A DNA stretch of 64,000 nucleotides from Escherichia coli (GTDB lineage: Bacteria; Pseudomonadota; Gammaproteobacteria; Enterobacterales; Enterobacteriaceae), in assembly GCF_051903065.1 (NCBI RefSeq), contig NZ_CP178438.1, one strand, 5' to 3'. The notes under the pieces are model-generated. The model saw only the letters and a list, made by a program, of their open reading frames with translations. It searched no databases and had not been told where the DNA came from. Shown one piece after another: positions 1,870 through 54,306 of the stretch. Each line of letters opens with the position of its first letter. Positions within the stretch are counted from its first letter, which is position 1. Both the position numbers and the translations under genes were made by a program.

Positions 1870-2463
1870 ATGAATGAAATCATTTCTGCAGCAGTTTTAT
1901 TGATCCTGATTATGGATCCGCTCGGAAACCTACCTATTTTCATGTCCGTACTGAAACATACTGAACCGAAAAGACGGCGGGCAATCATGGTGCGAGAGTT
2001 GCTTATTGCTCTCCTGGTGATGCTGGTGTTCCTGTTTGCGGGTGAGAAAATTCTGGCATTTCTCAGCCTGCGAGCAGAAACCGTCTCCATTTCTGGCGGC
2101 ATCATTCTGTTTCTAATTGCCATTAAGATGATTTTCCCCAGCGCTTCAGGAAATAGCAGCGGGCTTCCGGCAGGTGAAGAGCCATTTATCGTGCCGCTGG
2201 CAATTCCGCTGGTCGCCGGGCCAACTATTCTCGCCACGCTGATGTTGTTGTCTCATCAGTACCCGAATCAGATGGGACATCTGGTGATTGCTCTGCTGCT
2301 GGCCTGGGGCGGCACCTTTGTCATCCTGCTACAGTCTTCGCTATTTTTACGTCTGCTGGGCGAGAAAGGGGTGAACGCACTTGAACGCCTGATGGGATTG
2401 ATTCTGGTGATGATGGCAACCCAGATGTTCCTCGACGGCATTCGAATGTGGATGAAGGGGTAA
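1870..2463 (+). CDS. yhgN: MarC-family inner membrane protein YhgN
   Basis: 197-aa hydrophobic ORF MNEIISAAVLLILIMDPLGNLPIF...; position right after asd as in E. coli. Confidence 0.9.
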   Translation: MNEIISAAVLLILIMDPLGNLPIFMSVLKHTEPKRRRAIMVRELLIALLVMLVFLFAGEKILAFLSLRAETVSISGGIILFLIAIKMIFPSASGNSSGLPAGEEPFIVPLAIPLVAGPTILATLMLLSHQYPNQMGHLVIALLLAWGGTFVILLQSSLFLRLLGEKGVNALERLMGLILVMMATQMFLDGIRMWMKG

Positions 2464-2468
2464 GGTTC

Positions 2469-2507
2469 AAACAGGTGCTGCACACAACCAGACGCGGCAC
2501 CTGTTTT
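2469..2507 (+). terminator. putative stem-loop terminator between convergent yhgN and DprA-like gene
   Basis: aaacaggtgc (2469-2478) pairs with gcacctgttt (2497-2506), followed by T-run; loop is long (18 nt), so strength uncertain. Confidence 0.4.
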
Positions 2508-2508
2508 A

Positions 2509-3711
2509 TTACCTGAACTGATAATGACCTTCGCCCAATCGGATAACCCTTCCCTCTTCTTCTGCGCGGTTCAGCCACACACTAATTTGTTCGATGGTTA
2601 AACCAGTACAAGACGCCAGCCTTTCAATACTTATCGATTCCTTTGCAAGGATCGCCAGTTCCGCCACAAAGAGTTGATAAAAATCGACAGGCGTATACGC
2701 GGGCATTACTGCGTAATTTGCGTCATCTTCATGCAGCGAAAACAGTTCTGGTTGAGCGTTACGGAGTGCTCTGTCATACATCAGCCCAGGAACGTCTGGC
2801 AGTCTGATCGTCACATTCTCAGCCTGTTCAGCACTCCATGACGCCCCATTTTCTACTAATCGTGAATTGGCTGATTGCATATCCTGATTTGGTTTAACCT
2901 GCACAGGCAGCCACTGATGTTTTAATGCCTCCATCGCCCCGGTTATCGTTCCACCGGTCATTCCCGCACGTACAACCATTGCGCTTTCAGCAAGGCAATA
3001 AATATATTTATTTCGCGCCATCGCATTGCCGACGGTGAAACGTACCTCTGGGTAAAACGGCGAAATCAACACCAGGTTGCCTGCTATAAGCCCTTCACGC
3101 CATTTCACTAACGTACTCGTTTTTAACAAGCTATCAGCTAATACGCCAACGGCAGTTCCCCCGGCCTCCAGTGCCGACGCCATTGCACATTCATCAATAC
3201 CTCGCGCACCACCAGAGATAACGCAAATCCCCTGTTGGGCCAGTTTCGCGGCCAGTTGTTGGGTATAGCGCAAATCGTCAGTCGGAGCATCTCGCGAGCC
3301 AACAATCGCCATACCTTCCGCTTGCAGTAATGCTTTATTCCCGCAGCCAAATAAAACGGGAGGTGCATCCGTTCGCAATCGGTTTTTCAAGCGAACGGGA
3401 TAATCAGCATCTCCGCGGGTTAAGATCCATAAACCGGCGCGTTGCCACTTATCTACCGCCAACGCCAGACTATGACCACGCGCCAGCAAGCCAAGAATAC
3501 GCTCCTGAGAAATACGCGGATCGCTCCAGCCTGTAAGTTTCTCTTGCGGTTGCGGCACCAGAAGCTCGGCGGGACTGATACGTTGGTGCTTCAGCCATAA
3601 TGCAAACTTCCCCCATTCACTATTACTAAGAGGTTTATACTCACTCGCCGCCGCGCGAGAAAAATCGCTGGTTAGCAGGAGAGTTGCTTGTGCATTGGCT
3701 GAAAGATTCAT
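2509..3711 (-). CDS. DprA/Smf-like (SLOG Rossmann-fold) DNA-processing protein paralog
   Basis: ORF 2509..3804; DprA signature ...AIVGSRDAPTDDL...VISGGARGIDECAMASALEAGGTAVGVLADSL...MARNKYIYCLAESAMVVRAG; start assigned to Met32 (3709-3711), which overlaps the upstream helicase stop in a TGATG arrangement; the alternative start at 3804 would overlap the helicase by 94 nt. Confidence 0.75.
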   Translation of the reverse strand: MNLSANAQATLLLTSDFSRAAASEYKPLSNSEWGKFALWLKHQRISPAELLVPQPQEKLTGWSDPRISQERILGLLARGHSLALAVDKWQRAGLWILTRGDADYPVRLKNRLRTDAPPVLFGCGNKALLQAEGMAIVGSRDAPTDDLRYTQQLAAKLAQQGICVISGGARGIDECAMASALEAGGTAVGVLADSLLKTSTLVKWREGLIAGNLVLISPFYPEVRFTVGNAMARNKYIYCLAESAMVVRAGMTGGTITGAMEALKHQWLPVQVKPNQDMQSANSRLVENGASWSAEQAENVTIRLPDVPGLMYDRALRNAQPELFSLHEDDANYAVMPAYTPVDFYQLFVAELAILAKESISIERLASCTGLTIEQISVWLNRAEEEGRVIRLGEGHYQFR

Positions 3712-5807
3712 CAATTTTTTACCGAGGTAGAAGCAAGGGCAAGAGGATAAACCGTCGGGCAACCTGCCTGGCGTAACAGTGCTGTCAGAACTGTCAGCGT
3801 CCATGCAGAATCCACGATATCGTCAACCAGCAACGCCGGACCAGGCATCAAAGGAGGGGTAATCACAAACGCCCCGTCGAGATTTTGACACTGGTGGAAA
3901 CGGTTTTGCTGCATTTTCTGCGGTGGATTGTCCACGACTTTTTCAATGGCATCAATAAAAGGTAAGCCAAGTTTCGCCGCCAGTCGCCGGGCAAAATCAG
4001 AAACCAGGTCGAGGTGCTTTAATGAAGGAACGCAGCATACCCAGGTTGGTTCAGGATGCGGATTCCAGCGTTGGCGAACCATTTCCGCACATGCCTCCAC
4101 CAGTTCATCACTGAATCGTCCCGTTTTTTTCTCCTGTGCTACCTGCTTTCCCCACCCGGAATCTCCCCAACGAGAAAGGATTCGCCCCGTAGATCCTTGT
4201 AAACTCGCAGGCAAGTTCCCTTTAAATCCGTATTGCGTAAAAGCCCCAGCTGCCACCTGTTTATTGAGATTTAATGGCAGGTCAGCGTGTTTAATAAATA
4301 AGTTTGCCGCATGGAGTAAGCCGCTATCAATGTCGGGCGACAACAACGGACGCTGAAGACAACTGCTACATTTACCACAACGTTCGGCACCTGGCTCATC
4401 GAGTGCGCGGCGCAGAAATTGCATTTTGCACTCCTTGGTCGTGATATAGCTTTCAACGTCTGCCAGCTCACTTTTTCTCTGATTCATCAAATGGTTAATT
4501 CGTTCATGGTCAGGAGAAAAACTGACAATTGTTCTGCGCCATAATTTCTCGGTATACACCACAGGCGATGGATTTTCAGCTACCAATAATTTCAGTGCTT
4601 TTTCTATTTGCCCATAACGGAGATTCGTCCGTTGTTCAATGCCTCGTAAGGTAAGACCGTCATTCACGCTAAGTACGTTGAGTATTTCATGAATTTGTGC
4701 CTCCGCAGGAAAGGCGCTTTCACGGAAGAATTTATGAATAGCACGGTCTTCACTGCCGCAAAGCAGTATGCCAACAGCAGAATCGATACCGCGACCGGCA
4801 CGCCCCACCTGTTGGTAGTAACCAACTATCGAACCTGGCATCTGGTAATGAATAACAAACCCCAAATCCGGTTTGTCAAAGCCCATTCCCAGCGCCGTTG
4901 TCGCAACCAGCACTTTAATTTTATTTGCCAGCAACGCCTGCTCCAGATATTCCCTGGCAGTATTAGAATCTTCCGCGCCTTCACAAGTCACGCCGCTGTA
5001 GTAAGCAAATGCACTGATACCATTTTTCCTTAACCACTCGGCGACAAGTTCGGCATCGCGAGTAGTCAGGGTATAAACAATTCCCGATTTGGAAAACTGA
5101 GGGATAACCGTTGCTAACCATGCCAGACGGGATGACTGTTCACCTAAGACTAAGGCATCAAGCGCCAAACTTTCGCGAGCCAGCGTTCCACGCTGAATCA
5201 CAATGTCACCCAATTGCTGACGGATATCCTCAACGACACGGTTATTCGCTGTCGCGGTTGTACCCAGAACAGGGGTATTCGCAGGTAGTTGGCGCAAAAT
5301 ATCTAATATACGTCGGTAATCCGGGCGAAAATCGTGGCCCCAATCAGAGATGCAGTGCGCCTCGTCGACCACAAGCAAGCCAATACGATCGGCTATAGGA
5401 TATAAAACCGTTTCGATAAAGTCCTGGTTTGCCAAACGTTCCGGGGAAACCAGCAAGCAATCGACCTCACCTTGCAGCAACTTATCGCTAATGCGCTGCC
5501 ATTCTTCTCTGTTTGTAGAATTCAACGTTTCAGCCGTAATACCTAACCGTTCAGCGGCGGCAACCTGGTTACGCATCAGGGCAAGCAAAGGAGAGATGAT
5601 AATTGTCGGGCCAGCGCCGCGATCGCGGAAGATTTTACTGGCGATGAAGTACACAGCACTTTTCCCCCAGCCAGTGCGTTGGACAACCAGCAGTTTTCGC
5701 CGTTGGTTCACCACCGCGTCTATGGCTTCCCATTGCCCTTCCCTGAAAGTAGCGGTGGTATTTCCTAACATCCGCTGTAAAAGCAATTCAGCTGCGTGCT
5801 TTTCCAT
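3711..5807 (-). CDS. RecQ-family SF2 DNA helicase with C-terminal ComF/GntX-like phosphoribosyltransferase-fold domain
   Basis: 698 aa; Walker A QRTGWGKS, DEAH box VVDEAHCISDWGHDFRPDY, TATA motif, QQVGRAGRG arginine finger, Cys4 zinc site C460/C477/C480/C483 (17-3-3 spacing as in RecQ); C-terminal ...GAFVITPP...PALLVDDIVDSAWTL... resembles the PRTase-type nucleotide-binding loop of ComF-family proteins; strong SD (aggag) upstream of ATG at 5805-5807. Confidence 0.8.
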   Translation of the reverse strand: MEKHAAELLLQRMLGNTTATFREGQWEAIDAVVNQRRKLLVVQRTGWGKSAVYFIASKIFRDRGAGPTIIISPLLALMRNQVAAAERLGITAETLNSTNREEWQRISDKLLQGEVDCLLVSPERLANQDFIETVLYPIADRIGLLVVDEAHCISDWGHDFRPDYRRILDILRQLPANTPVLGTTATANNRVVEDIRQQLGDIVIQRGTLARESLALDALVLGEQSSRLAWLATVIPQFSKSGIVYTLTTRDAELVAEWLRKNGISAFAYYSGVTCEGAEDSNTAREYLEQALLANKIKVLVATTALGMGFDKPDLGFVIHYQMPGSIVGYYQQVGRAGRGIDSAVGILLCGSEDRAIHKFFRESAFPAEAQIHEILNVLSVNDGLTLRGIEQRTNLRYGQIEKALKLLVAENPSPVVYTEKLWRRTIVSFSPDHERINHLMNQRKSELADVESYITTKECKMQFLRRALDEPGAERCGKCSSCLQRPLLSPDIDSGLLHAANLFIKHADLPLNLNKQVAAGAFTQYGFKGNLPASLQGSTGRILSRWGDSGWGKQVAQEKKTGRFSDELVEACAEMVRQRWNPHPEPTWVCCVPSLKHLDLVSDFARRLAAKLGLPFIDAIEKVVDNPPQKMQQNRFHQCQNLDGAFVITPPLMPGPALLVDDIVDSAWTLTVLTALLRQAGCPTVYPLALASTSVKN

Positions 5808-5907
5808 CTTTATCTCCTGCGATCTTTAGGCAGTGATTAGAACGGATTATTTGCAGGTAAATTTGCGAGAGAGATCAAAAAGATGAAGAGAGGAGAAAAG
5901 AGAAATG

Positions 5908-5935
5908 AATTACTGCGAGCAAGCTCGCAGTAATT
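5908..5935 (-). terminator. rho-independent terminator downstream of gntU
   Basis: Perfect inverted repeat aattactgcgagc-aa-gctcgcagtaatt; on the minus strand it is followed by a T-rich tract (catttctcttttctcc...). Confidence 0.6.
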
Positions 5936-5946
5936 TGTCGCAGTAA

Positions 5947-7287
5947 TTAACTCAACAGCTGGAACGCAATCATCCCAACGATGGCACCAACAGTGCCGAG
6001 GATGGTTTCCATCATGGTCCAGGTTTTCAGCGTTTCGGCTTCGGTCGCGCCGGTAAATTTACCGAACAACCAGAAACCGGCGTCGTTAACGTGGCTGACA
6101 ACAATCGAACCACCGGCGATACAAATCGACAGCGCCGCCATTTGCGCACCGGAGTAGTTCAGTTGTTCAATGACCGGCATCACCAGCCCCACCGCCGTTA
6201 AACAGGCAACGGTGGCAGACCCCTGAATGATGCGCACTGCAGCTGCCAGCACGAAGCAGGTGATAGCAATCGGCAGGCCCATGCCGGTTAACGCTTCGCC
6301 CAGTGCCGGACCTACGCCAGAGTCAACCAGCACCTGTTTGAACACGCCGCCCGCACCAATCACCAGCAGAATGATCCCCGCCGGTTGCAGCGCGTGACCG
6401 CAAATCTCCATCACTTTGTCTTTTGGCATGCCCTGACGCATTGCCAGGCCATAAATCGCTACCAGACAAGCAACCAGAATCGCGGTAAACGGATGACCAA
6501 TAAACTCGAACCATTCGTAAGCAGTAGAGCCTTCCGGCACAAAACGCGCGGCAATGGTTTTCAGCCCCACCAGCACCAGCGGCAGCAGGATCAGCGACAG
6601 GCTGAATCCGAAGGACGGCATTTTGCCTTCGCCGAGATGCGGCTCGCTGATGTCGTCAGGAATATGCAGCTCAACGTAACGGCTGATGAAGTTACCCCAC
6701 AGCGGCCCGGCAATAATCATTCCCGGAATTGCCGCACACAGGCCAATCAGGATCATCCAGCCAAAATCGGCGTTCATCTGCGATGCCAGCAGCATTGGCG
6801 CTGGCCCTGGCACCAGGAACGCCGCCGCTGCCGCCACGCCTGCGAATAATGGGATTACCAGCTTCACCAGGTTCGTACCGGTGTGGCGCGCCATTGAGAA
6901 AGCAACGCTAATCAGCAGAACAATCGCCACTTCAAAGAACAGCGGTAGCGCACAGACCAGCCCCGCAAGGCCGATGGCATAATGCGCGCGGCTGTGACCG
7001 AAGGATTTAAGCATTTTGACGGCAATCTGATCGACTGCGCCGGTTTCATGTAAGATCTTGCCAAACATAGCTCCCAGGGCGACAACCACCGCCAGGAAGC
7101 CGAGGGTGCCTCCCATCCCTTTTTCCATCGTCGCTGCGATTTTATCGAGCGGCATACCGGAAAAAAGGCCAGCCCCCATGGACACCACCATTAAAGCCAG
7201 GAAAGCGTGCATACGCGCCTTCATGACTAAAAACAGCAGCAGTAAAACAGACCCTACTGCTGTTAAAACAAGCGTTAATGTAGTCAC
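5947..7287 (-). CDS. gntU: low-affinity gluconate transporter (GntP family)
   Basis: 446-aa polytopic membrane protein MTTLTLVLTAVGSVLLLLFLVMKARMHAF...; conserved position upstream of gntK/gntR. Confidence 0.9.
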   Translation of the reverse strand: MTTLTLVLTAVGSVLLLLFLVMKARMHAFLALMVVSMGAGLFSGMPLDKIAATMEKGMGGTLGFLAVVVALGAMFGKILHETGAVDQIAVKMLKSFGHSRAHYAIGLAGLVCALPLFFEVAIVLLISVAFSMARHTGTNLVKLVIPLFAGVAAAAAFLVPGPAPMLLASQMNADFGWMILIGLCAAIPGMIIAGPLWGNFISRYVELHIPDDISEPHLGEGKMPSFGFSLSLILLPLVLVGLKTIAARFVPEGSTAYEWFEFIGHPFTAILVACLVAIYGLAMRQGMPKDKVMEICGHALQPAGIILLVIGAGGVFKQVLVDSGVGPALGEALTGMGLPIAITCFVLAAAVRIIQGSATVACLTAVGLVMPVIEQLNYSGAQMAALSICIAGGSIVVSHVNDAGFWLFGKFTGATEAETLKTWTMMETILGTVGAIVGMIAFQLLS

Positions 7288-11147: not shown

Positions 11148-11242
11148 AAAAAAAAAGCCAGCACCCGGCTGGCTAAGTAATACTGGAAGCAATGTGAGCA
11201 ATGTCGTGCTTTCAGGTTCTCCGCGAGGGTCTTCCTGATCGC
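11148..11242 (-). ncRNA. ryhB: RyhB small RNA (Fur-repressed iron-sparing sRNA)
   Basis: Minus-strand sequence GCGATCAGGAAGACCCTCGCGGAGAACCTGAAAGCACGACATTGCTCACATTGCTTCCAGTATTACTTAGCCAGCCGGGTGCTGGC followed by a T-run, recognised from memory as RyhB; lies between yhhX and yhhY as expected. Confidence 0.85.
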
Positions 11243-11852: not shown

Positions 11853-11879
11853 AGAATTTGCAATCTAAGTTTGTCATTT

Positions 11880-11906
11880 AAGCCCTCACCTACCGGGAGA
11901 GGGCTT
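11880..11906. terminator. putative bidirectional stem-loop between convergent yhhY and ggt
   Basis: aagccctc ... gagggctt inverted repeat in the 60-bp convergent intergenic region; no clean T-run. Confidence 0.4.
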
Positions 11907-11912
11907 AAGATA

Positions 11913-19507: not shown

Positions 19508-20254
19508 TCATTGCACCACACTCTGCTTCAGCCGCTCATTGGCGGTCTTAATCCATTCCCGGTGGTGTTTTCTATAATGAGGTCTTGAGCGTTTAGCCGT
19601 ATCAACCACGGCAACATACTGCTCGTTGGCTTCACGTAACCGACTCATTTTCGCCAACATTTCCGCATAGTAAATACGCGCCTGCGGGCCGGGGTAATAA
19701 GAAATCAATACTTCAAACTCGCTTTCCGCATCAGCGTATTTTTCTTGTGCGGCTAACGTTCTGGCAAATAACAAATGCCCGTCTGCCGACTGAAAATCAG
19801 GGTTATAACGCATCACATCTTCCAGCGTCTGCTGACAGGCGGCGAACTCCTGAATAGCAAACTGTGCCTGCGCCAGGCTTAGCATCATTGCCGCTTCATG
19901 GGCGAATATCCCGCTTAACGCCTGCTGATAATGGGGAACAGCTTCGTGATAACGCCCCAGACGCGCCAGTTCATTAGCCAACGCATAATGGTTTTGATTC
20001 GTCTCGGCAATCGCCAGTTCTTCGGTTAATTTGCGCAGGTGGCGCTCAGGGTTGAGTTTGTTCTGCAGGCGCATCAGCAAAGTATGCCCGTGACGGTCAG
20101 CGCCCGTTTCAGGCAGCATCACTATGACGAAATACGCCACGCAGCCAATCACCGGAAAACAGAAAATGATAAAAATCCAGTACCGCTCTTGTCCGGTACG
20201 GTAAGCGTGAATACAGCAAAGCAGTTCAAGCATGACAACAACGGCATAATGCAT
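19508..20254 (-). CDS. hypothetical membrane protein, PLDc_N-like N-terminal domain plus helical-repeat (TPR-like) C-terminal region
   Basis: 248 aa; N-terminus LELLCCIHAYRTGQERYWIFIIFCFPVIGCVAYFVIVMLPE fits the small two-helix PLDc_N pattern (R..W....I..P..G...Y); C-terminal part Ala/Leu-rich helical repeats; no database check run. Confidence 0.6.
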   Translation of the reverse strand: MHYAVVVMLELLCCIHAYRTGQERYWIFIIFCFPVIGCVAYFVIVMLPETGADRHGHTLLMRLQNKLNPERHLRKLTEELAIAETNQNHYALANELARLGRYHEAVPHYQQALSGIFAHEAAMMLSLAQAQFAIQEFAACQQTLEDVMRYNPDFQSADGHLLFARTLAAQEKYADAESEFEVLISYYPGPQARIYYAEMLAKMSRLREANEQYVAVVDTAKRSRPHYRKHHREWIKTANERLKQSVVQ

Positions 20255-25632: not shown

Positions 25633-26016
25633 ATGAAGCTGACCATCATTCGATTAGAAAAATTTAGCGACCAGGACCGGATTGACCTGCAAAAGATCTG
25701 GCCGGAGTATTCCCCTTCCTCGTTACAGGTTGACGATAACCACCGTATCTACGCCGCGCGTTTTAACGAGCGCCTGCTCGCTGCCGTACGGGTAACCTTA
25801 AGCGGCACAGAGGGAGCACTGGATTCCCTGCGCGTGCGGGAAGTCACTCGACGTCGCGGTGTGGGGCAATATCTGCTGGAAGAGGTTTTGCGTAACAATC
25901 CTGGCGTTTCATGCTGGTGGATGGCGGATGCAGGCGTGGAAGATCGCGGTGTGATGACGGCGTTTATGCAGGCGCTGGGGTTTACGGCACAACAGGGCGG
26001 CTGGGAGAAGCGTTAA
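25633..26016 (+). CDS. panM: PanD maturation/regulatory factor (GNAT-like)
   Basis: 127 aa MKLTIIRLEKFSDQDRIDLQKIWPEY...; between livK and livJ as in E. coli. Confidence 0.85.
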   Translation: MKLTIIRLEKFSDQDRIDLQKIWPEYSPSSLQVDDNHRIYAARFNERLLAAVRVTLSGTEGALDSLRVREVTRRRGVGQYLLEEVLRNNPGVSCWWMADAGVEDRGVMTAFMQALGFTAQQGGWEKR

Positions 26017-26540
26017 TCGCTCTGTGTAAAAAGCAGTTCAATGGATTTGGTTGGGAAAAATAACGCATTTTTGTTTTCCCCGACTAAAGGGATAAAGCCC
26101 AGCGATTTATAAAACGTATGGGCTTTTTCATTCAGCGCCTCGACAAAAAGACCGTGAATACCTACCGCTAAAGAGGCTGACCAGACGACTTTCATGGCAT
26201 GAGCAACCAGTGTTGCTCCCCATCCCTGCCCCTGTATTGAATGATCAATTGCCAGACGCCCAAGAGTGACGCTGGGAATATTTTTGTAGGGAATTTTTTT
26301 CTGTTTCGATTTCGAGGGCAATGCGGCTCGTTCAAAACAACTGCCGCATAATGTGTAATATCCCAGCACCTGACGTTCTGGAGTGTTGCGACAAAGGATA
26401 TACGCTCGCAGAATTTTGTTGCGATGTTGACGAACGAGATGTGTCGTCAGAAAGAGATTTAACGCTTCCTCGCCGCAGTCGAATCGCTGTAGATCATAAT
26501 CTGCATCATCGGTCAGAATCTCTATCGTCAGATCATCCAT
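26013..26540 (-). CDS. GNAT-family acetyltransferase toxin of a type II TA pair (AtaT/KacT/TacT family)
   Basis: 175 aa; GNAT acetyl-CoA motif (QGQGWGATLVAHAM); immediately downstream of a DUF1778 antitoxin with a 7-nt gap. Confidence 0.8.
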   Translation of the reverse strand: MDDLTIEILTDDADYDLQRFDCGEEALNLFLTTHLVRQHRNKILRAYILCRNTPERQVLGYYTLCGSCFERAALPSKSKQKKIPYKNIPSVTLGRLAIDHSIQGQGWGATLVAHAMKVVWSASLAVGIHGLFVEALNEKAHTFYKSLGFIPLVGENKNALFFPTKSIELLFTQSD

Positions 26541-26546
26541 AAATTA

Positions 26547-26813
26547 TTACATTCCCTGAAGACGTTTTACCGCACGTTTTAGCTTTTCACCTGGTGACGG
26601 TGGATTACTCAGCGCATCCATCACCCGCGTCCAGGATTCCTCATTGAGGATCACCCGCCGATGCTGTTCAATCACTTCCGCAGCCCGCTGCGAAGCGCTG
26701 TTCAACATAAATTGGCTGACGGACTGATTAGATATCGCTGCCGCTTCCTCAATCATACTTTTGTCATCGTCAGTTAAACGCAGATCGATACGCTGCTTTT
26801 TAACAGCAGACAT
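26547..26813 (-). CDS. DUF1778 (RHH-like) antitoxin (AtaR/KacA/TacA family)
   Basis: 88 aa MSAVKKQRIDLRLTDDDKSMIEEAAAISNQSVSQFMLNSA...; strong SD AGGAGA upstream. Confidence 0.8.
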   Translation of the reverse strand: MSAVKKQRIDLRLTDDDKSMIEEAAAISNQSVSQFMLNSASQRAAEVIEQHRRVILNEESWTRVMDALSNPPSPGEKLKRAVKRLQGM

Positions 26814-41784: not shown

Positions 41785-42060
41785 GTGGCTTCTGTTTCTA
41801 TCAGCTGTCCCTCCTGTTCAGCTACTGACGGGGTGGTGCGTAACGGCAAAAGCACCGCCGGACATCAGCGCTATCTCTGCTCTCACTGCCGTAAAACATG
41901 GCAACTGCAGTTCACTTACACCGCTTCTCAACCCGGTACGCACCAGAAAATCATTGATATGGCCATGAATGGCGTTGGATGCCGGGCAACAGCCCGCATT
42001 ATGGGCGTTGGCCTCAACACGATTTTACGTCACTTAAAAAACTCAGGCCGCAGTCGGTAA
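41785..42060 (+). CDS. insA: IS1 InsA (transposition inhibitor / N-terminal part of transposase)
   Basis: 91 aa [43 protein letters not shown]... (GTG start). Confidence 0.93.
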
Positions 42061-42482
42061 CCTCGCGCATACAGCCGGGCAGTGACGTCATCGTCTGCGC
42101 GGAAATGGACGAACAGTGGGGCTATGTCGGGGCTAAATCGCGCCAGCGCTGGCTGTTTTACGCGTATGACAGGCTCCGGAAGACGGTTGTTGCGCACGTA
42201 TTCGGTGAACGCACTATGGCGACGCTGGGGCGTCTTATGAGCCTGCTGTCACCCTTTGACGTGGTGATATGGATGACGGATGGCTGGCCGCTGTATGAAT
42301 CCCGCCTGAAGGGAAAGCTGCACGTAATCAGCAAGCGATATACGCAGCGAATTGAGCGGCATAACCTGAATCTGAGGCAGCACCTGGCACGGCTGGGACG
42401 GAAGTCGCTGTCGTTCTCAAAATCGGTGGAGCTGCATGACAAAGTCATCGGGCATTATCTGAACATAAAACACTATCAATAA
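41979..42482 (+). CDS. insB: IS1 InsB frame (transposase InsAB' made by -1 frameshift at the A-run near 42036-42041)
   Basis: 167-aa -1 frame ORF overlapping the insA 3' end; slippery ttaaaaaac motif present. Confidence 0.9.
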
Positions 42483-42865: not shown

Positions 42866-43255
42866 ATGAGACATTACATGAAATGGTTTGCGGCTATTGC
42901 TGTTGTGGGTGCTTTAGCGGGTTGCGCGCGTACTGCGCCAATTGATCAGGTTCACTCAACCGTCAGCGCTGGTCATACCCAGGAACAAGTGAAAAAAGCG
43001 ATTCTGAAAGCTGGCGTTGAACGCAAATGGATTATGTCCGAAGCCGGACAAGGCATAATTAAAGCACGTCAACAGTCACGCGATCATTCAGCGGAAATAC
43101 GCATTAACTACACGGCATCCAGCTACGATATCAATTATGAAAATAGCCAGAACCTTCAAGCGTCAGGCGGACAAATTCATAAAAACTACAATCGCTGGGT
43201 CCGCAATCTCGACAAAGATATTCAACTGAATTTGTCAGCGGGCGCAGATTTATAA
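42866..43255 (+). CDS. small lipoprotein (first gene of the polyene-type cluster)
   Basis: 129 aa, signal peptide with lipobox MKWFAAIAVVGALAGC; alternative start ATG 42878. Confidence 0.75.
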   Translation: MRHYMKWFAAIAVVGALAGCARTAPIDQVHSTVSAGHTQEQVKKAILKAGVERKWIMSEAGQGIIKARQQSRDHSAEIRINYTASSYDINYENSQNLQASGGQIHKNYNRWVRNLDKDIQLNLSAGADL

Positions 43256-43314
43256 TTCCTCCTAAAGTCGGGCCGTTGCGGTCCGATAATAATTTAATTC
43301 CCTCTTAACAGGTT

Positions 43315-44382
43315 GTGCCCAACATGTACGAACAGGATTCTCTTAGCGCACTGGATGCGATTACCGAAGCTCAACGCATTGCCTTTGCCCCTATGCTTTT
43401 TCAAACAGCACTCTGCCTACGTAATGCGGGTGTACTTTCATATCTGGATCGGCAAGGCAAACATGGCGCAACGCTGGCTGATATCACCGAACATAGCCAT
43501 ATCAACGAATATGCTGCCAGCGTTCTGTTAGATATGGGCTTAAGCGGGCGAATTATTACCTGTAAAGAGGGAATTTATTACCTGGCGAAAATCGGTCATT
43601 ACCTCCTGCATGACACTATGACTCGCGTGAATATGGATTTCACCCAGGATGTCTGTTACCAGGGGCTCTTCTTCCTCGCCGATTCACTCAATGAAGGAAA
43701 ACCTTCCGGGTTAAAAGTATTTGGCGACTGGTCGACGATATATCCGGCACTTTCGCAATTACCAGACGCCGCTCGTGAAAGCTGGTTTGCGTTTGATCAT
43801 TACTATTCAGATGGCGCATTTAACGCCGCACTGCCTTATGTATTCGCCAACAACCCCACAACATTGTACGATGTAGGCGGCAATACGGGTAAGTGGGCTT
43901 TGCGTTGCTGCAAATACAATGAAAACATCGCCGTGACGTTATTAGATCTGCCACAACAAATCGTACTAGCGAAAGAAAATATCGCGAATGCAGGTTTTTC
44001 TGATCGCATAGATTTCCATGCGGTGGATATGCTAAGCGATGCCCCATTACCGGGCGAGGCTGATATCTGGTGGATGAGCCAATTTTTAGACTGTTTTTCA
44101 CCCGAACAAATAATTAGCATACTCAGCAAAATTGCCAGCGTAATGAAGCCTGGCGCAAAAGTTTGCATCATGGAGTTGTTCTGGGATGCGCAGCGGTTTG
44201 AAGCAGCATCGTTTAGCCTGAACGCGTCCTCACTTTATTTTACCTGCATGGCAAACGGTAACAGCCGTTTCTATAGTGCAGAGAAATTTTACGACTATCT
44301 GAATAAAGCAGGATTCCAGGTAGCAGAGCGCCACGATAATTTAGGCGTTGGGCATACACTTTTGATATGCCAAAAGAAATAA
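43315..44382 (+). CDS. class I SAM-dependent (O-)methyltransferase
   Basis: 355 aa; SAM-binding motif LYDVGGNTGKWAL; GTG start at 43315, alternative ATG at 43324. Confidence 0.8.
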   Translation: MPNMYEQDSLSALDAITEAQRIAFAPMLFQTALCLRNAGVLSYLDRQGKHGATLADITEHSHINEYAASVLLDMGLSGRIITCKEGIYYLAKIGHYLLHDTMTRVNMDFTQDVCYQGLFFLADSLNEGKPSGLKVFGDWSTIYPALSQLPDAARESWFAFDHYYSDGAFNAALPYVFANNPTTLYDVGGNTGKWALRCCKYNENIAVTLLDLPQQIVLAKENIANAGFSDRIDFHAVDMLSDAPLPGEADIWWMSQFLDCFSPEQIISILSKIASVMKPGAKVCIMELFWDAQRFEAASFSLNASSLYFTCMANGNSRFYSAEKFYDYLNKAGFQVAERHDNLGVGHTLLICQKK

Positions 44383-44422
44383 TCGTCACTTAATAATTTT
44401 GGTTTACCGCGGGCGCGCGTTG

Positions 44423-45145
44423 ATGAAATTTACATTAAATATTACCGACTGGCAGGCACTGGCGCCTGGACTTAGCGAAGCGCAGCAATGGCAAGCATGG
44501 TCGCGCCAGCCGTGGGCGATTGACCCTGCCGCGCCGTTGGCAAAATTAAGTGAACTGCCAATGATGACCGCCCGCCGCCTCAGTTCAGGCAGCAAACTGG
44601 CTGTTGAATGCGGTCTGGCAATGCTACGCCGCCATCAGCCAGACGCCGTTTTGTATACCAGTCGTCATGGCGAACTGGAGCGCAATTACCGCATTGTTCA
44701 TGCACTGGCAACCGAACAGGCGCTTTCTCCGACCGACTTCGCGCTCTCCGTACACAACTCTTCCGTGGGTAACCTGACCATTGCGGCCAAACAGCCGATC
44801 GTTTCGTCATCGCTTTCGGCTGGTCGCGACACTTTCCAGCAAGGTTTGTGTGAAGTGCTTAGCCTGTTACAAGCGGGATACCAGCGCGTGCTGATGGTCG
44901 ATTTTGACGGTTTCCTGCCCGAGTTTTATCACCCACAACTGCCATCAGAAATGCCGACCTGGCCGTACGCCGTCGCGCTGGTGATTGAAGCTGGCGATGA
45001 GTGGCAATGTGAAACGCAGTCAGCCATTGCGGGCAATGAAACAACACTGCCGCAAAGCATGTTGTTTTTACAGCACTATTTACAAAATGTAGACACATTT
45101 TCACTGCCTGGCGAGCGCGTGCAATGGCGCTGGAGCCACAGATGA
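44423..45145 (+). CDS. ketosynthase-like protein lacking the active-site Cys (chain-length-factor-like KS partner)
   Basis: ORF 44399..45145 (TTG in track); ATG at 44423 gives MKFTLNITDWQALAPG...; about 240 aa, thiolase-like N-terminal half without a C-x-S-S catalytic motif. Confidence 0.7.
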   Translation: MKFTLNITDWQALAPGLSEAQQWQAWSRQPWAIDPAAPLAKLSELPMMTARRLSSGSKLAVECGLAMLRRHQPDAVLYTSRHGELERNYRIVHALATEQALSPTDFALSVHNSSVGNLTIAAKQPIVSSSLSAGRDTFQQGLCEVLSLLQAGYQRVLMVDFDGFLPEFYHPQLPSEMPTWPYAVALVIEAGDEWQCETQSAIAGNETTLPQSMLFLQHYLQNVDTFSLPGERVQWRWSHR

Positions 45146-45963
45146 GTAAGCTGATGTCACGTCTGGAGTGGACCTGGCGACTGGTCATGACCGGGTTATG
45201 TTTTGCCCTGTTTGGTCTCGGCGGCCTGCTGCTTTCTGTCGTGTGGTTTAACATATTGTTAGTTTTGGTGTGGGATACTTCCCGCCGCCGTCGTTTGGCG
45301 CGTCGCAGCATTGCCGCCAGTTTTCGCCTGTTTTTAACTGTCGCGAAAGGGCTTGGCGTGCTGGATTATCGTATTGATGGCGCTGAAATTTTACGTCAGG
45401 AACGCGGTTGCCTCGTCGTAGCCAATCATCCCACGCTGATCGATTACGTGCTGCTGGCGTCAGTCATGCCAGAAACTGACTGCCTGGTGAAAAGCGCACT
45501 GTTAAAAAATCCTTTTCTTGGCGGCGTCGTGCGGGCGGCAGATTATTTAATCAACAGCGAAGCTGAAACCCTGTTACCCCGCTGCCAACAGCGACTGGCA
45601 CAGGGTGACACTATCCTGATTTTCCCCGAAGGCACACGAACGAAGCCCGGTGAAAAAATGACGCTGCAGCGCGGGGCGGCGAATATTGCCGTGCGCTGCG
45701 CCAGCGATTTACGCATCGTGACAATCGGCTGTAGCGAGCATCTGCTGGATAAACAAAGTAAATGGTATGACGTTCCACCTGACCGGCCGTTTTTTACGGT
45801 TGCAGTCCATGGTCGGGTTGAAATCAATAAATTTTACGATGCAACTTCACAAGAACCGGCGCTGGCAGCAAGGCAGTTAAACCGGCATCTTTTGCTTCAA
45901 TTACAACAAGGTTGTTTACCTCTCTCAGGAATAAATAATGCAAGCGCTTTATCTGGAAATTAA
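45142..45963 (+). CDS. PlsC-type (lysophospholipid) acyltransferase
   Basis: ORF 45124..45963; start at ATG 45142 forms an ATGA overlap with the upstream stop; motifs NHPTLIDYVLL (H-x4-D) and IFPEGTRT. Confidence 0.8.
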   Translation: MSKLMSRLEWTWRLVMTGLCFALFGLGGLLLSVVWFNILLVLVWDTSRRRRLARRSIAASFRLFLTVAKGLGVLDYRIDGAEILRQERGCLVVANHPTLIDYVLLASVMPETDCLVKSALLKNPFLGGVVRAADYLINSEAETLLPRCQQRLAQGDTILIFPEGTRTKPGEKMTLQRGAANIAVRCASDLRIVTIGCSEHLLDKQSKWYDVPPDRPFFTVAVHGRVEINKFYDATSQEPALAARQLNRHLLLQLQQGCLPLSGINNASALSGN

Positions 45964-46195
45964 AAACCTCATCATCAGCACCCTCAATCTGGACGAGTTG
46001 ACGCCTGATGATATCGATACCGACGCGCCGCTGTTTGGCGACGGTTTAGGGCTGGACTCTATCGATGCCCTGGAACTGGGACTGGCAGTAAAAAATGAGT
46101 ACGGCATCGTGCTCTCTGCGGAAAGCGAAGAGATGCGTCAGCACTTTTTCTCCGTCGCCACTCTGGCCTCTTTCATTGCTGCGCAACGTGCCTGA
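45938..46195 (+). CDS. acyl carrier protein 1
   Basis: 85 aa; phosphopantetheine-attachment motif GLGLDSIDALELG; SD agga 7 nt upstream. Confidence 0.88.
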   Translation: MQALYLEIKNLIISTLNLDELTPDDIDTDAPLFGDGLGLDSIDALELGLAVKNEYGIVLSAESEEMRQHFFSVATLASFIAAQRA

Positions 46196-46206
46196 GGAAA
46201 GCCATC

Positions 46207-46458
46207 ATGACAGAACAACAAACCGTCTATCAGGAAGTCTCAGCCCTGCTGGTTAAGCTGTTTGAAATCGATCCGCAGGACATCAAACCTGAAGCGCGCC
46301 TGTACGAAGATCTGGAACTGGACAGCATCGACGCCGTTGACATGATTGTGCACCTGCAAAAGAAAACCGGTAAGAAAATCAAGCCGGAAGAGTTTAAAGC
46401 AGTGCGTACAGTCCAGGATGTCGTCGAGGCTGTAGAACGCCTGCTACAAGAAGCCTGA
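46207..46458 (+). CDS. acyl carrier protein 2
   Basis: 83 aa; motif DLELDSIDAVDMI; SD gagga upstream. Confidence 0.88.
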   Translation: MTEQQTVYQEVSALLVKLFEIDPQDIKPEARLYEDLELDSIDAVDMIVHLQKKTGKKIKPEEFKAVRTVQDVVEAVERLLQEA

Positions 46459-46462
46459 TCTG

Positions 46463-47044
46463 ATGTCGGGCATTCGCTCGCTACCGATGATTAAGCTGCT
46501 GACTGGATTATTGCTGCTCGCCTGGCCGTTTGTGATTTGGTTTGGCTTAGCGCATAACGGCCTGCACTGGCTGTTACCGCTAATGGCGTTGCTGCTTTTG
46601 TTGCGTCTGCGCCAGACCCGTCGCCAGGCGGGGCCTTTACAAGCCGTCACGCAACTCGTCGCTGTCGTGGGCATCGCATTATGTGTCGCCAGCTTTATGT
46701 TGAAAACGCACCAGCTACTGCTGTTTTACCCGGTAGTGGTTAACGCGGTCATGCTGGCGGTTTTTGGCGGTTCGCTGTGGTCGGCAATGCCGATAGTTGA
46801 GCGGCTGGCGCGGTTGCAGGAGCCAGACCTCCCGGAAAAGGGCGTGCGCTATACCCGCCACGTCACGCAAATCTGGTGCGGCTTTTTCATCATTAACGGT
46901 GGAATTGCCCTCTTTACCGCGCTTTATGCCGATATGTCGTTATGGACCGCCTGGAACGGCATGATTGCTTATTTGTTGATGGGGACGTTAATGGCTGGTG
47001 AATGGCTGGTGCGCCGCCAGGTTATGAAAAGAGATCGCGCATGA
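46463..47044 (+). CDS. hypothetical integral membrane protein
   Basis: 193 aa, about 4-5 hydrophobic helices (LLTGLLLLAWPFVIWFGLAH...). Confidence 0.7.
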   Translation: MSGIRSLPMIKLLTGLLLLAWPFVIWFGLAHNGLHWLLPLMALLLLLRLRQTRRQAGPLQAVTQLVAVVGIALCVASFMLKTHQLLLFYPVVVNAVMLAVFGGSLWSAMPIVERLARLQEPDLPEKGVRYTRHVTQIWCGFFIINGGIALFTALYADMSLWTAWNGMIAYLLMGTLMAGEWLVRRQVMKRDRA

Positions 47045-48402
47045 AGCAGACCTTACCGCTTGCACGCTGGCTGACTGCGCCACGCCCTGATGACACACCC
47101 ATTGCGTGGCTGAACGAAAGTACCTGGACGCTGGGCGATTTGCGTCACGATGTCGCGCAACTTATCTGCCGCTTGCAGCAACAGCCGGGTGAACGCTGGG
47201 CGCTGTGCTTTGAGAACAGCTATCTGTTTATCGTTGCCCTGCTCGCCACGCTACACGCCGGAAAAACGCCGGTGCTTCCGGGGCATAACCGTGTTATCCA
47301 GCTTAACGAGCAACGTGAACTTTTTGATGGTGTGCTTAGCGACAGCGAACTTAACTGGCAAGGTTCATTGCTGTTGGTAGCAAGTTCCCCACAAGTCGCG
47401 ACACAATCCTTCACCTTTGCCGCTATAGCGCCAGAGGCTTATATCGAGCTGTTTACCTCCGGTTCCACGGGACAGCCGAAACGGGTGATTAAACCTGTTC
47501 ATTTGCTGGACCGTGAAGCAGAACTGCTGGCTGAACGATTAGGCGCACGTCTGGCGGATTGTCGTGTCATCGGTTCCGTATTGCCGCAGCATTTGTACGG
47601 CCTGACTTTTCGCGTTTTCCTGCCCATGGCGCTGGGATTACCCCTACATGCCGCCATGCTCTGGTATGTCGAACAGTTTGCCGCGTTGAGTCATCAGCAT
47701 CGCTATATCTTCATCAGCAGCCCGGCATTTTTGAAGCGTCTGGATACACAGCTTTCCCCACCGCCCGTTCAGGTGCTTCTCTCTGCTGGCGGTGAGCTAC
47801 CGTGGCAGGATGTACAACACACCGCGAGCTGGCTGCGCGTCTGGCCTGATGAAATCTACGGCAGCACGGAAACCGGCGTCATCGCCTGGCGCTACCGCGA
47901 ACAAGAGCAACGCCGCTGGCTACCCCTCCCAGGTATGCAGTTCCAGGCCGAAGGCGATGCCTTTCGCCTCTTTTCACCGCTGATAGCGGAAGATAACGGC
48001 CTGTTACTCGACGATATCTTACAGTTTAGCGAAGATGGTCAGTTCCATCTGATGGGGCGTCGTGGGCGCATCGTTAAGATTGAAGAAAAACGTATTTCAC
48101 TCCAGGAAGTAGAACAACGTCTACTGGCGCTGGACGGCATTCGCGAGGCGGCGGCAGTTCCCGTTACGCGCGGCGGGCGTCAGAGCATAGGCGTTTTGCT
48201 GGTGCTGGATGACGAAGCTCATCTGCAATGGCAGAACGGCGGCGGGCATAGCCAGGAAATGACCTGGCGGCGTTTACTGCGCCCGACGCTGGAGCCAGTT
48301 GCTATTCCGCGTTACTGGCGCGTTATTGATGAAATGCCAGTAAACAGTATGAACAAGCGTGTCTATGCGCAATTACAGGAGTTATTTCATGAAGCCCCAT
48401 GA
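47041..48402 (+). CDS. adenylate-forming enzyme (AMP-dependent synthetase/ligase; probable starter-acid:ACP ligase)
   Basis: ORF 47002..48402; start at ATG 47041 (ATGA overlap with upstream stop); AMP-binding motifs FTSGSTGQPKRV and YGSTETG. Confidence 0.82.
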   Translation: MKQTLPLARWLTAPRPDDTPIAWLNESTWTLGDLRHDVAQLICRLQQQPGERWALCFENSYLFIVALLATLHAGKTPVLPGHNRVIQLNEQRELFDGVLSDSELNWQGSLLLVASSPQVATQSFTFAAIAPEAYIELFTSGSTGQPKRVIKPVHLLDREAELLAERLGARLADCRVIGSVLPQHLYGLTFRVFLPMALGLPLHAAMLWYVEQFAALSHQHRYIFISSPAFLKRLDTQLSPPPVQVLLSAGGELPWQDVQHTASWLRVWPDEIYGSTETGVIAWRYREQEQRRWLPLPGMQFQAEGDAFRLFSPLIAEDNGLLLDDILQFSEDGQFHLMGRRGRIVKIEEKRISLQEVEQRLLALDGIREAAAVPVTRGGRQSIGVLLVLDDEAHLQWQNGGGHSQEMTWRRLLRPTLEPVAIPRYWRVIDEMPVNSMNKRVYAQLQELFHEAP

Positions 48403-48742
48403 AATCGAGCGCCATCAGGCACAAACGAATCACCTTGAAATTGTTCTGCATCTCAGGGCGGATCTGTTCTGGTTTCGCGGTCATTTTGCCGTGCAACCAT
48501 TACTCCCAGGAGTTGCGCAAATCGATTGGGCGATGAGCTACGCGCTCAATCTGCTCGCGCCTGGCTGGCGTTTTCACTCCATTCAGAACATAAAATTCCA
48601 GTCTCCGTTGCTGCCGGAAAACCGCGTCACGCTCGCGCTTAACTGGCAGGAAGAACGCCAGATTCTGAGCTTTAGCTATCAGCGTCACGACGGTGACGCC
48701 CGCCACACCGCCAGTAGCGGGAAGATACGCCTATGTCGGTAA
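48389..48742 (+). CDS. FabZ/FabA-like hotdog-fold 3-hydroxyacyl-ACP dehydratase
   Basis: ORF 48359..48742; start ATG 48389 with SD aggag 8 nt upstream; motif FRGHFAVQPLLPGVAQIDWAM resembles FabZ GHFP..P..PGVL..EA.AQ. Confidence 0.78.
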   Translation: MKPHEIERHQAQTNHLEIVLHLRADLFWFRGHFAVQPLLPGVAQIDWAMSYALNLLAPGWRFHSIQNIKFQSPLLPENRVTLALNWQEERQILSFSYQRHDGDARHTASSGKIRLCR

Positions 48743-50409
48743 ACTTTTCTCCCTGCGTGTTGATCCCCTGCTACAACCACGGCGCGATGATGCCGGGCGT
48801 GCTGGCGCGTCTTAAGCCATTTAATCTGCCCTGTATTGTGGTGGACGACGGCAGCGATGCCGCCACGCAACAGCAACTGGACAGTCTGCTTGCCGAACAG
48901 CCTGGCGTGACCTTAATCCGCCTGGCAGAAAACGCAGGCAAAGGCGCGGCAGTGATGCGTGGCTTACAGGCAGCGGCAGACGCAGGGTTCAGCCATGCGG
49001 TGCAGGTGGATGCTGACGGTCAACATGCGATTGAAGATATCCCCAAACTGCTGGCACTCGCTGAACAACACCCTGCGGCGCTGATCTCCGGCCAGCCAAT
49101 TTACGATGACTCCATCCCCCGCTCACGGCTTTACGGGCGCTGGGTCACCCACGTCTGGGTATGGATCGAAACGCTCTCCCTGCAACTGAAAGACAGCATG
49201 TGCGGCTTTCGCGTTTATCCGGTTGCGCCAACGCTGCAACTGGCAAAACACGCCACCATCGGCAAGCGGATGGATTTCGACACTGAAGTGATGGTGCGCC
49301 TCTACTGGCAGGGAAACACCAGCTATTTCGTGCCGACCCGCGTCACCTATCCACTGGACGGGCTTTCGCATTTTGATGCCCTGAAAGATAACGTCCGCAT
49401 CTCGCTCATGCACACGCGTCTGTTTTTCGGCATGTTGCCGCGTATTCCTTCACTACTGATGCGCCGCTCTTCCAGCCACTGGGCGCGGCAGAGTGAAGTG
49501 AAAGGATTATGGGGAATGCGCCTGATGCTGCTGGTCTGGCGTCTGCTGGGAAGAACGGCGTTTAGCGCGCTGCTTTACCCGGTGGTGGGCGTCTACTGGC
49601 TCACTGCTGCTCGTGCGCGCAAAGCGTCGCAAGACTGGCTCGCCCGTGTACGACAGCATCAACCACAGGCGGCAAAACTCAACAGCTATCAGCACTTTCT
49701 ACGTTTCGGTAATGCCATGCTCGACAAAATCGCCAGCTGGCGCGGCGAGCTACAACTGGGGCACGATGTGCTGTTTGCGCCAGGCGCAGAAGCGGCGCTT
49801 GACGTCAGCGATCCGCGCGGCAAATTGCTGCTGGCCTCGCATCTTGGCGATGTGGAAGTGTGCCGGGCGCTGGCAAAAATTCAGGGCTACAAAACCATTA
49901 ACGCGCTGGTGTTTAGCGAAAACGCCCAACGCTTTAAACAGATAATGCAGGAGATGGCTCCTCAGGCAGGTATTAACCTGATGCCGGTAACAGATATCGG
50001 CCCGGAAACCGCCATCCTGCTGAAAGAGAAGCTGGATAACGGCGAATGGGTGGCGATTGTCGGTGACCGCATCGCCGTCACCCCGCAACGCGGCGGCGAC
50101 TGGCGCGTCTGCTGGAGTCCGTTTATGGGCCAGCCTGCGCCCTTCCCACAGGGGCCGTTTATTCTCGCGTCTATTTTGCGCTGCCCGGTGAATCTGATTT
50201 TCGCCCTGCGCCAGCGCGGCAAGCTGCATATTCACTGCGAAACCTTTGCCGACCCGCTGCTGTTGCCGCGTGGCGAACGCCAACAGGCGCTGCAAAACGC
50301 TATCGACCACTACGCCGCGCGTCTGGAACATTACGCGCTCCAGTCGCCCCTCGACTGGTTTAATTTTTTCGATTTCTGGCAACTGCCGGAAATTCAGGAC
50401 AAGGAGTAA
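48733..50409 (+). CDS. two-domain protein: N-terminal GT2-family glycosyltransferase plus C-terminal domain of uncertain (possibly acyltransferase-like) function
   Basis: 558 aa; GT-A motifs VLIPCYNHG, VVDDGSDA, QVDADGQH in the first about 250 aa; C-terminal half not confidently assigned by eye. Confidence 0.75.
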   Translation: MSVNFSPCVLIPCYNHGAMMPGVLARLKPFNLPCIVVDDGSDAATQQQLDSLLAEQPGVTLIRLAENAGKGAAVMRGLQAAADAGFSHAVQVDADGQHAIEDIPKLLALAEQHPAALISGQPIYDDSIPRSRLYGRWVTHVWVWIETLSLQLKDSMCGFRVYPVAPTLQLAKHATIGKRMDFDTEVMVRLYWQGNTSYFVPTRVTYPLDGLSHFDALKDNVRISLMHTRLFFGMLPRIPSLLMRRSSSHWARQSEVKGLWGMRLMLLVWRLLGRTAFSALLYPVVGVYWLTAARARKASQDWLARVRQHQPQAAKLNSYQHFLRFGNAMLDKIASWRGELQLGHDVLFAPGAEAALDVSDPRGKLLLASHLGDVEVCRALAKIQGYKTINALVFSENAQRFKQIMQEMAPQAGINLMPVTDIGPETAILLKEKLDNGEWVAIVGDRIAVTPQRGGDWRVCWSPFMGQPAPFPQGPFILASILRCPVNLIFALRQRGKLHIHCETFADPLLLPRGERQQALQNAIDHYAARLEHYALQSPLDWFNFFDFWQLPEIQDKE

Positions 50410-50412
50410 AGG

Positions 50413-54305: not shown

Positions 54306-54306
54306 T

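Follow-up and report, generated by a model that had tools for sequence, protein, structure and literature searches.

The RqlH clade of DNA helicases was defined with the protein of Mycobacterium smegmatis (Ordonez, Unciuleac and Shuman 2012, PMC3378886). That paper describes a RecQ-like ATPase, a tetracysteine zinc domain and a tail resembling the ComF-type phosphoribosyltransferases (PRTases), and states that the gene is missing from Escherichia coli K-12 and present in other E. coli. It characterizes the M. smegmatis protein as a DNA-dependent ATPase and a 3′-5′ translocase/helicase on single-stranded DNA (ssDNA), with the activities located in residues 1-505. Here we analyse a two-gene cassette, rqlH-rqlI, which occupies positions 2509-5807 of a 64,000-nucleotide stretch of E. 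coli DNA (contig NZ_CP178438.1), and in which a gene of this clade is followed by the gene of a DprA-like protein. The whole stretch is called the window below.

In E. coli the two proteins were studied experimentally by Russell and Mulvey (2015, PMC4670107), who used the cystitis isolate F11. The two genes were shown to be co-transcribed by reverse transcription PCR. RqlH expressed without RqlI induced the SOS response and filamentation, arrested growth and raised the mutation rate. The RqlH mutants comprised K49A, D148A, D663A and DIVD663EVME. Toxicity needed the phosphoribosyl pyrophosphate (PRPP) loop of the PRTase domain, the isolated PRTase domain being insufficient, and the helicase-dead K49A and D148A variants were harmful despite the presence of RqlI. 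Co-precipitation of RqlI with RqlH required RqlH residues 510-698. The antitoxin activity of RqlI depended on its N-terminal and DprA regions, and its helix-turn-helix (HTH) domain was dispensable (all PMC4670107).

PsyrTA of P. syringae was listed as a toxin-antitoxin (TA) system in 2013 (Sberro). Millman (2022) equates PsyrTA with RqlHI and lists it as an anti-phage system: cloned with its native promoter the operon gave defence against phage, whereas a construct deleted for psyrA could not be transformed. As described there, the defensive representative came from a donor organism other than that of the E. coli chromosomal allele. A second described system, ShosTA, likewise consists of a PRTase-domain toxin and a DprA-like antitoxin, and has the filamentation and DNA-damage phenotype in common with RqlHI (PMC11961720, PMC12961424). 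ShosT must bind PRPP and perturbs purine metabolism, ShosA, an intrinsically unstable protein, binds ssDNA and RecA, and the Gp0.7 protein of T7 triggers ShosTA through shut-off of protein synthesis (PMC11961720, PMC12961424). The systems differ in the N-terminal part of the toxin, which in ShosT has a pyrophosphatase fold and no helicase, whereas RqlH has the helicase. They also differ in the mode of inhibition: ShosTA is type IV-like, ShosA not being bound to ShosT, whereas RqlI does bind RqlH.

Identification of the cassette and its reading frames

PADLOC, which like DefenseFinder has an entry for PsyrTA, recognized both proteins of the window. RqlH matched PsyrT (E=0, 1063 bits) with residues 3-697 aligned to positions 5-687 of the 689-position profile, and RqlI matched PsyrA over its full length, residues 1-400 (E=1e-202). 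Extraintestinal pathogenic E. coli (ExPEC) strain 536, which served as a proxy for F11 in the identity comparison, has the pair at the same yhgN/gntU site, with amino-acid identities of 97% (RqlH) and 99% (RqlI). The lengths of 698 and 400 residues and the residues K49, D148 and DIVD663 agree exactly with those reported for F11 (PMC4670107), as do the gene order and the overlap of the genes. Because of the full-length PADLOC matches, the shared site and high identity with strain 536, and the agreement with the published lengths and residues, the cassette is, as judged from its sequence, the already described rqlH-rqlI (RqlHI/PsyrTA) operon of E. coli and not a new one. It differs from the F11 system by allele only: its DNA diverges by ~4% from that of B2 strains, and it is 99.6% identical to the O157:H7 cassette and 100% identical to that of strain 23CRST027. 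The features of PsyrTA, a PsyrT-type helicase-PRTase, a DprA-like (SLOG) partner of ~400 residues and a helicase gene placed directly upstream on the same strand and overlapping its partner, were all found in the window. The order of toxin gene upstream and DprA-like antitoxin gene downstream is the same in PsyrTA of P. syringae, and the arrangement seen in the window is also the one known from orthologs.

This identification bears on the original prediction, which described the pair from the letters of the window and could not connect it with a named system. The novelty that it implied is lost, because RqlHI, alias PsyrTA, is present in PADLOC and in papers of 2012, 2013, 2015 and 2022, and a match to an already characterized system is what the prediction itself had named beforehand as grounds for giving it up. 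It had also missed the relationship between the two products, a toxin acting through the PRTase domain and a DprA-like antitoxin. The experiments that it proposed are largely published, among them mutants of K49 and of the PRPP loop, K-12 expression and tests of phage plaquing. Its suggestion of a possible defence role is supported by the PADLOC matches to PsyrTA and by the listing of the system in the literature.

The two minus-strand open reading frames (ORFs) lie, co-oriented and where the original prediction had placed them, in the gap between yhgN (1870-2463, plus strand) and gntU (5947-7287, minus strand). rqlH (psyrT; 3711-5807, minus strand) encodes the 698-residue toxin, a RecQ-like helicase bearing a C-terminal PRTase domain; the assignment is based on PADLOC PsyrT, the strain 536 ortholog and the published lengths and residues. 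rqlI (psyrA; 2509-3711, minus strand) encodes the 400-residue DprA-like antitoxin, as indicated by PADLOC PsyrA, the 536 ortholog, the junction sequence and the starts of homologs.

The start of rqlI needed correction. Its longest ORF (2509-3804, minus strand) would give a protein of 431 residues, and this was the start taken in the original prediction, which had the location of the gene right. The real start is the ATG at 3711, giving a product of 400 residues, since 45 of 45 aligned homologs, all from other taxa, begin at the Met encoded there, the PsyrA profile aligns from residue 1 and the published protein has 400 residues. The RefSeq/PGAP annotation also begins the 431-residue product at the ATG at 3804, overlapping rqlH by 94 nt; this database start is probably too long, by 31 codons (3712-3804). 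The ATG at 3711 overlaps the rqlH stop codon as TGATG, sharing the A of TGA, and through this overlap the two genes are predicted to be translationally coupled.

Domain organization of RqlH and RqlI

The helicase core of RqlH, a superfamily 2 core of the RecQ family, comprises residues 20-357 (4737-5750, minus strand) as defined by Pfam, NCBIfam and PDB sequence matches. Pfam detected DEAD (5e-25) and Helicase_C (1e-12), and the characteristic motifs are GWGKS at residues 46-50 (Walker A, K49), DEAH at 148-151 and QQVGRAGR at 332-339. Neither an RQC nor an HRDC domain was found in the Pfam scan, which agrees with the original description of a RecQ core lacking this tail. The NCBIfam subfamily model recQ_fam was the only one passed (253.7, cut-off 219.8). 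Assignment to the RecQ equivalog was rejected on the score of 296.6 against a cut-off of 640.2 (TIGR01389) and on the missing RQC/HRDC domains. The best PDB sequence match was E. coli RecQ (1oyw, 4e-53); the search of PDB sequences returned RecQ cores only and no solved full-length PsyrT/RqlH structure.

A tetracysteine zinc site formed by C460, C477, C480 and C483 (4359-4430, minus strand) was recognized from the cysteine positions, which have the spacing 17-3-3, and from Pfam, where RecQ_Zn_bind gave a weak match to residues 443-484 (E=0.003) that spans the Cys4 cluster. N-terminal of the zinc site lies the RqlH-specific linker (residues ~358-440). Housekeeping RecQ has the helicase core and the zinc-site spacing in common with RqlH, and differs from it in having neither the extra linker of ~100 residues nor the PRTase tail, and in having the RQC/HRDC domains that RqlH lacks. 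The domain scheme is that of M. smegmatis RqlH, for which PMC3378886 gives the same succession of RecQ-like ATPase, specific linker, tetracysteine zinc domain and ComF-like PRTase tail. Unlike the gene of the window, that of M. smegmatis stands alone without an RqlI partner, and the biochemistry was done on this ortholog, not on the E. coli protein.

Residues 509-698 (3714-4283, minus strand) make up the predicted type I PRTase-fold domain, the toxic effector, a feature drawn from an AlphaFold2 model, Foldseek, the PF00156 annotation of homologs, an invariant motif and the published mapping. The tail holds PALLVDDIVDSAWTL, in which DIVD occupies residues 663-666; the PRPP loop is LLVDDIVDSAWT, and the D663 codon is at 3819-3821. 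This acidic motif is thus present in the RqlH of the window, and its requirement for toxicity is known from PMC4670107. Sequence profiles matched the tail weakly: Pribosyltran of Pfam gave E=0.008 for residues 605-683, and the best NCBIfam match was GntX with 15.7 bits. Most homologs of the tail carry precomputed PF00156 annotation, and the pattern DD..DS.WT is invariant across 51 members of the family. The AlphaFold2 model of residues 488-698 has a predicted local distance difference test score (pLDDT) of 89.6, and with this model Foldseek retrieved APRT, OPRT, the PRTase domain of PurF and ComFC of H. pylori (7p0h); no query TM-score was higher than that of ComFC (0.52). The C-terminus of RqlH can be firmly assigned a predicted ComF-like type I PRTase fold, because the PF00156 annotation of homologs, the invariant pattern and the model matching type I PRTases all agree. 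The original prediction had recognized the ComF/GntX likeness of the tail and had underestimated its size, ~120 residues in place of ~190-210 (from about 490 or 509 to 698). The two checks that it proposed for this region gave the expected results: the profile hidden Markov models found DEAD and Helicase_C with a weak Pribosyltran tail, and DNA_processg_A in the partner, and structure prediction of the C-terminus gave a PRTase fold.

RqlI was likewise recognized in the original prediction as a DprA/SLOG paralog, an assignment borne out by Pfam (DNA_processg_A, 5e-51; SLOG cluster4, 4e-11) and by structural matches to DprA. All motifs quoted there, namely GWGKS, DEAH, the arginine finger, Cys4 and the C-terminal loop of RqlH and the three motifs of its partner, are present; in the 400-residue numbering the latter are GSR at 138, GGARGID at 167 and AGG at 183. 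The DprA/SLOG Rossmann domain comprises residues 89-292 (2836-3447, minus strand; Pfam, Foldseek), and a winged-helix/HTH domain was delimited at residues 344-400 (2512-2682, minus strand) from the secondary structure and pLDDT of the AlphaFold2 model. In this model (pLDDT 84.3) a helical N-terminal domain and the Rossmann domain are followed by a disordered linker (306-341) and the C-terminal winged helix. The best Foldseek matches were the three-domain DprA 3maj, DprA of S. pneumoniae (3uqz) and ShosA (8zva); molybdenum cofactor (MoCo)-carrier and LOG proteins came next, which explains the 'MoCo-binding' label given to RqlI in PMC4670107. The scores were below the cut-offs for canonical DprA/Smf (102 against 191 for TIGR00732; 79.9 against 495 for PRK10736), and the fold and three-domain layout are still DprA-like. 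According to the model, RqlI is a three-domain DprA paralog.

Several related systems were considered as the family of the cassette and rejected. RqlI matched the ShosA profile with 3e-27, and the RqlH tail matched the ShosT profile with E=0.013 only; with this merely marginal match and a helicase present, the cassette is not a ShosTA system. The Dpd system was excluded by the score of RqlH against DpdF (150.3 against 550 for NF041063), by PADLOC matches to DpdF, numerous across its profiles, which stayed far below that to PsyrT, and by the lack of dpd neighbours, the flanks being yhgN and gntU. Membership in the ComF/GntX family was rejected on scores of 11.4 against 233.6 (TIGR00201) and 15.7 against 304 (PRK11595), the likeness being one of fold only (7p0h). 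RqlHI has the ComFC-like PRTase topology and the three-domain DprA fold in common with the competence proteins ComFA/ComFC/DprA and with E. coli GntX and Smf. It differs from them in scores below the family cut-offs, in the RecQ-type helicase, in toxin-antitoxin behaviour and in having no transformation phenotype. The comparison with ComFA/ComFC/DprA was already drawn in the discussion of PMC4670107.

Distribution and proposed function

Of the 5,426 complete E. coli genomes in the population survey, 1,650 carried the cassette, which was chromosomal in every case and formed a single continuous copy in all but a few; its left junction with yhgN was detected in 1,648. A K-12-like uninterrupted yhgN-gntU junction was present in 3,774 of the 5,426. 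The 1,650 carriers and these 3,774 genomes together make up all 5,424 that matched the site, and the locus thus exists in two forms only. The cassette is accessory in E. coli, and K-12 has only a short spacer, both as originally claimed: in MG1655 the yhgN-gntU spacer is 56 nt long and contains a hairpin of its own. Alignment with the K-12 junction showed that the accessory segment (2464-5946, minus strand) replaces this spacer entirely, between the stop codons of yhgN and gntU. Neither direct nor inverted repeats flank the cassette, no integrase was found, and the K-12 spacer showed no similarity to the cassette ends. The GC content of the cassette (~0.45-0.52) is unremarkable for E. coli. 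In most carriers neither gene is disrupted, and DNA conservation is 96-100%. A published survey found PsyrTA to be enriched in phylogroup E2.

The rqlH allele of the window is intact. In the O157:H7 genome NZ_CP022050.2 the equivalent of window positions 3711-5807 (locus L006, 1748-3872) is an rqlH pseudogene beside an intact rqlI. Three lesions were seen: the frame is shifted after about residue 171 by a 1-nt deletion, Q332 is replaced by a stop codon (window position 4814), and the part encoding the PRTase domain has a tandem duplication of 29 bp following window position 3991. A 44-nt query spanning the duplication junction was used to count this allele, and the junction was present in 292 complete genomes, all of O157:H7 type among the matches listed. 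Inactivation of rqlH in O157:H7 is not mentioned in PMC4670107. The intact rqlI beside the dead toxin gene may have a function of its own, for example in neutralizing incoming PsyrT- or ShosT-like toxins.

Full-length homologs were also found on 12 plasmids, and none among 50,697 phage records. The E. coli IncFIA/IncFIC conjugative plasmid NZ_OX030731.1 carries a diverged pair of RecQ-PRTase and DprA-like genes, whose helicase is 60.6% identical to RqlH. The pair (locus L005, 5001-8518) lies within a type I restriction-modification (R-M) operon, flanked by hsdS and hsdR. It represents a second, plasmid-borne lineage of PsyrTA in E. coli, in a classic defence context.

Taken with the published work, these observations make it very probable that rqlHI is a large two-gene toxin-antitoxin module of the anti-phage class, in which a PRTase effector is restrained by RqlI and set free on infection. 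In the uninfected cell RqlI would clamp the PRTase domain while the helicase scans DNA. The PRTase domain would be a genotoxic effector, held back both by the binding of RqlI and by the helicase. Phage infection would then remove or titrate RqlI. Two candidate triggers are suggested by analogy with ShosTA: shut-off of host protein synthesis, which would deplete an unstable antitoxin, and competition of ssDNA or RecA for RqlI. The freed PRTase would use PRPP on DNA exposed by the helicase or on purine and nucleotide pools, and the outcome would be a block of phage and host replication, that is, abortive infection.

Several points weigh against this interpretation. The native PsyrTA of E. coli NILS69, the sole test of a native E. 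coli PsyrTA that we found, gave no detectable protection, whether in K-12 or in the host of origin, and a growth defect was its only effect. Deletion of rqlHI in F11 had no fitness phenotype in vitro or in mice (PMC4670107), and rqlH is inactivated in the O157:H7 lineage. The function of the window allele is taken from published orthologs of the same length and numbering (the 536 proteins are 97-99% identical). At the level of sequence the tail matches PRTases only weakly (Pfam E=0.008; GntX 15.7 bits), and the assignment relies on the fold, the conserved loop and the published mutagenesis; PRTase catalysis by RqlH is a prediction. Finally, RqlI binds RqlH whereas ShosA does not bind ShosT, and the trigger models of ShosTA may not transfer.

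The null results obtained with NILS69 and with the F11 deletion, together with the dead rqlH of O157:H7, are the reason for keeping open a different explanation, which we regard as unlikely: that the chromosomal rqlHI of E. coli is a selfish or vestigial addiction module of the TA type, with no current defence role, inherited vertically at a fixed site. A toxin gene that is dead beside an intact antitoxin gene in 292 O157:H7-type genomes is the decay pattern expected of a TA pair, and a strictly two-form, chromosomal, single-copy locus with no hallmarks of a mobile element would also suit such a module, as would the absence of phage protection by the native NILS69 system and of a phenotype after deletion of the whole operon. 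The negative test in the native host NILS69, however, covered a limited set of phages, and the PsyrTA family scored as defensive when cloned under native promoters. On its conjugative plasmid the diverged pair is embedded in a type I R-M operon, a typical defence context, and most carriers have both genes intact and 96-100% conserved at the DNA level, which also speaks against a module without a current role.

PMC4670107 proposed that RqlH and RqlI form a DNA maintenance or modification machine: the PRTase would alter a nucleotide in DNA, RqlI and the helicase would resolve the product, and toxicity would arise when the cycle is incomplete. The real helicase activity of the M. smegmatis ortholog, the toxicity of helicase-dead mutants even with RqlI, the many Gram-positive bacteria that have RqlH alone without harm, and the full three-domain DprA architecture retained by RqlI would all fit this model. 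We nevertheless consider it improbable, and clearly more so than an addiction module: no beneficial phenotype of the operon was found (PMC4670107), ~70% of E. coli genomes lack the cassette, a DNA adduct has yet to be demonstrated, and the related ShosT acts on purine metabolism and not directly on DNA. It is hardly conceivable that the cassette is a compact module for natural transformation or DNA uptake, in which DprA would accompany a ComFA-like helicase and a ComFC-like PRTase. The two domain sets do correspond, as was noted in PMC4670107, H. pylori ComFC gave the best TM-score for the C-terminal model, and GntX was the best NCBIfam match of the tail; yet the helicase is of the RecQ family and not ComFA, the GntX and ComF scores quoted above are far under their cut-offs, RqlI does not reach the DprA equivalog model, no transformation was detected in ExPEC (PMC4670107) and the pair acts as a toxin and an antitoxin.

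With rqlHI taken as an anti-phage TA module, the action of its effector can be formulated more specifically, in a version to which we give little credence. The helicase-tethered PRTase would phosphoribosylate bases in the ssDNA exposed by its own motor, as opposed to the drain on the nucleotide pool suggested for ShosT, and RqlI would have two roles, capping the enzyme and sensing phage ssDNA or RecA. A direct action of the RqlH PRTase on DNA was already floated in PMC4670107.

Other features of the window and annotation of the pair

A hairpin common to the convergent 3′ ends of yhgN and rqlI was found by folding at 2469-2506 and is a probable bidirectional terminator (−21.0 kcal/mol, z = −4.8 on the plus strand; −18.9 kcal/mol, z = −2.9 on the minus strand). 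Terminator scanning and folding also revealed the gntU terminator hairpin (5908-5935, minus strand), a 12-bp stem followed by a T-rich tail (−16.6 kcal/mol, z = −4.4), which would insulate rqlHI from gntRKU read-through. The rqlH 5′ region (5808-5907, minus strand), as read from the sequence, contains an AGGAG Shine-Dalgarno element at 5814-5818. Scanning the minus strand upstream of rqlH for the sigma-70 consensus yielded no site, and the rqlH promoter was not located. An Rfam scan of the window detected no structured RNA in the cassette. Its sole match, well outside, was the small RNA RyhB (83.1 bits, 11149-11213), an ordinary copy in its usual place between yhhX and yhhY.

The window contains a second accessory TA module, the type II pair ataR-ataT with an acetyltransferase toxin (26013-26813), between panM and livJ, as annotated in an identical genome. 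A copy of IS1A (41785-42482) adjoins a ~15-kb biosynthesis cluster of the lipid/polyene type (42878-57894) situated between yhhT and acpT. This cluster encodes acyl carrier proteins, ketosynthases, an MMPL transporter, a LolA-like protein and a glycosyltransferase, and seems to resemble the aryl-polyene or O-island cluster linked to AcpT. In the window ggt directly follows yhhY (11853-11912), where K-12 has yhhZ, so the accessory segment of K-12 that contains yhhZ is absent from this strain. Two further genes encode a 248-residue tetratricopeptide-repeat protein (19508-20254, between ugpB and livF) and a 102-residue hypothetical protein (37093-37401, minus strand, between zntA and tusA).

Should RqlH indeed phosphoribosylate DNA directly, the discovery would concern the mechanism of a known system and would not make it a new one. 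The RefSeq labels 'RecQ family ATP-dependent DNA helicase' and 'DNA-processing protein DprA' hide an RqlHI/PsyrTA toxin-antitoxin/defence pair, and the value of the present identification for genome annotation is the correct label of this pair. The details added here to the known system are the clean two-form population pattern at the yhgN/gntU site and the inactivation of the toxin gene throughout the O157:H7 lineage.

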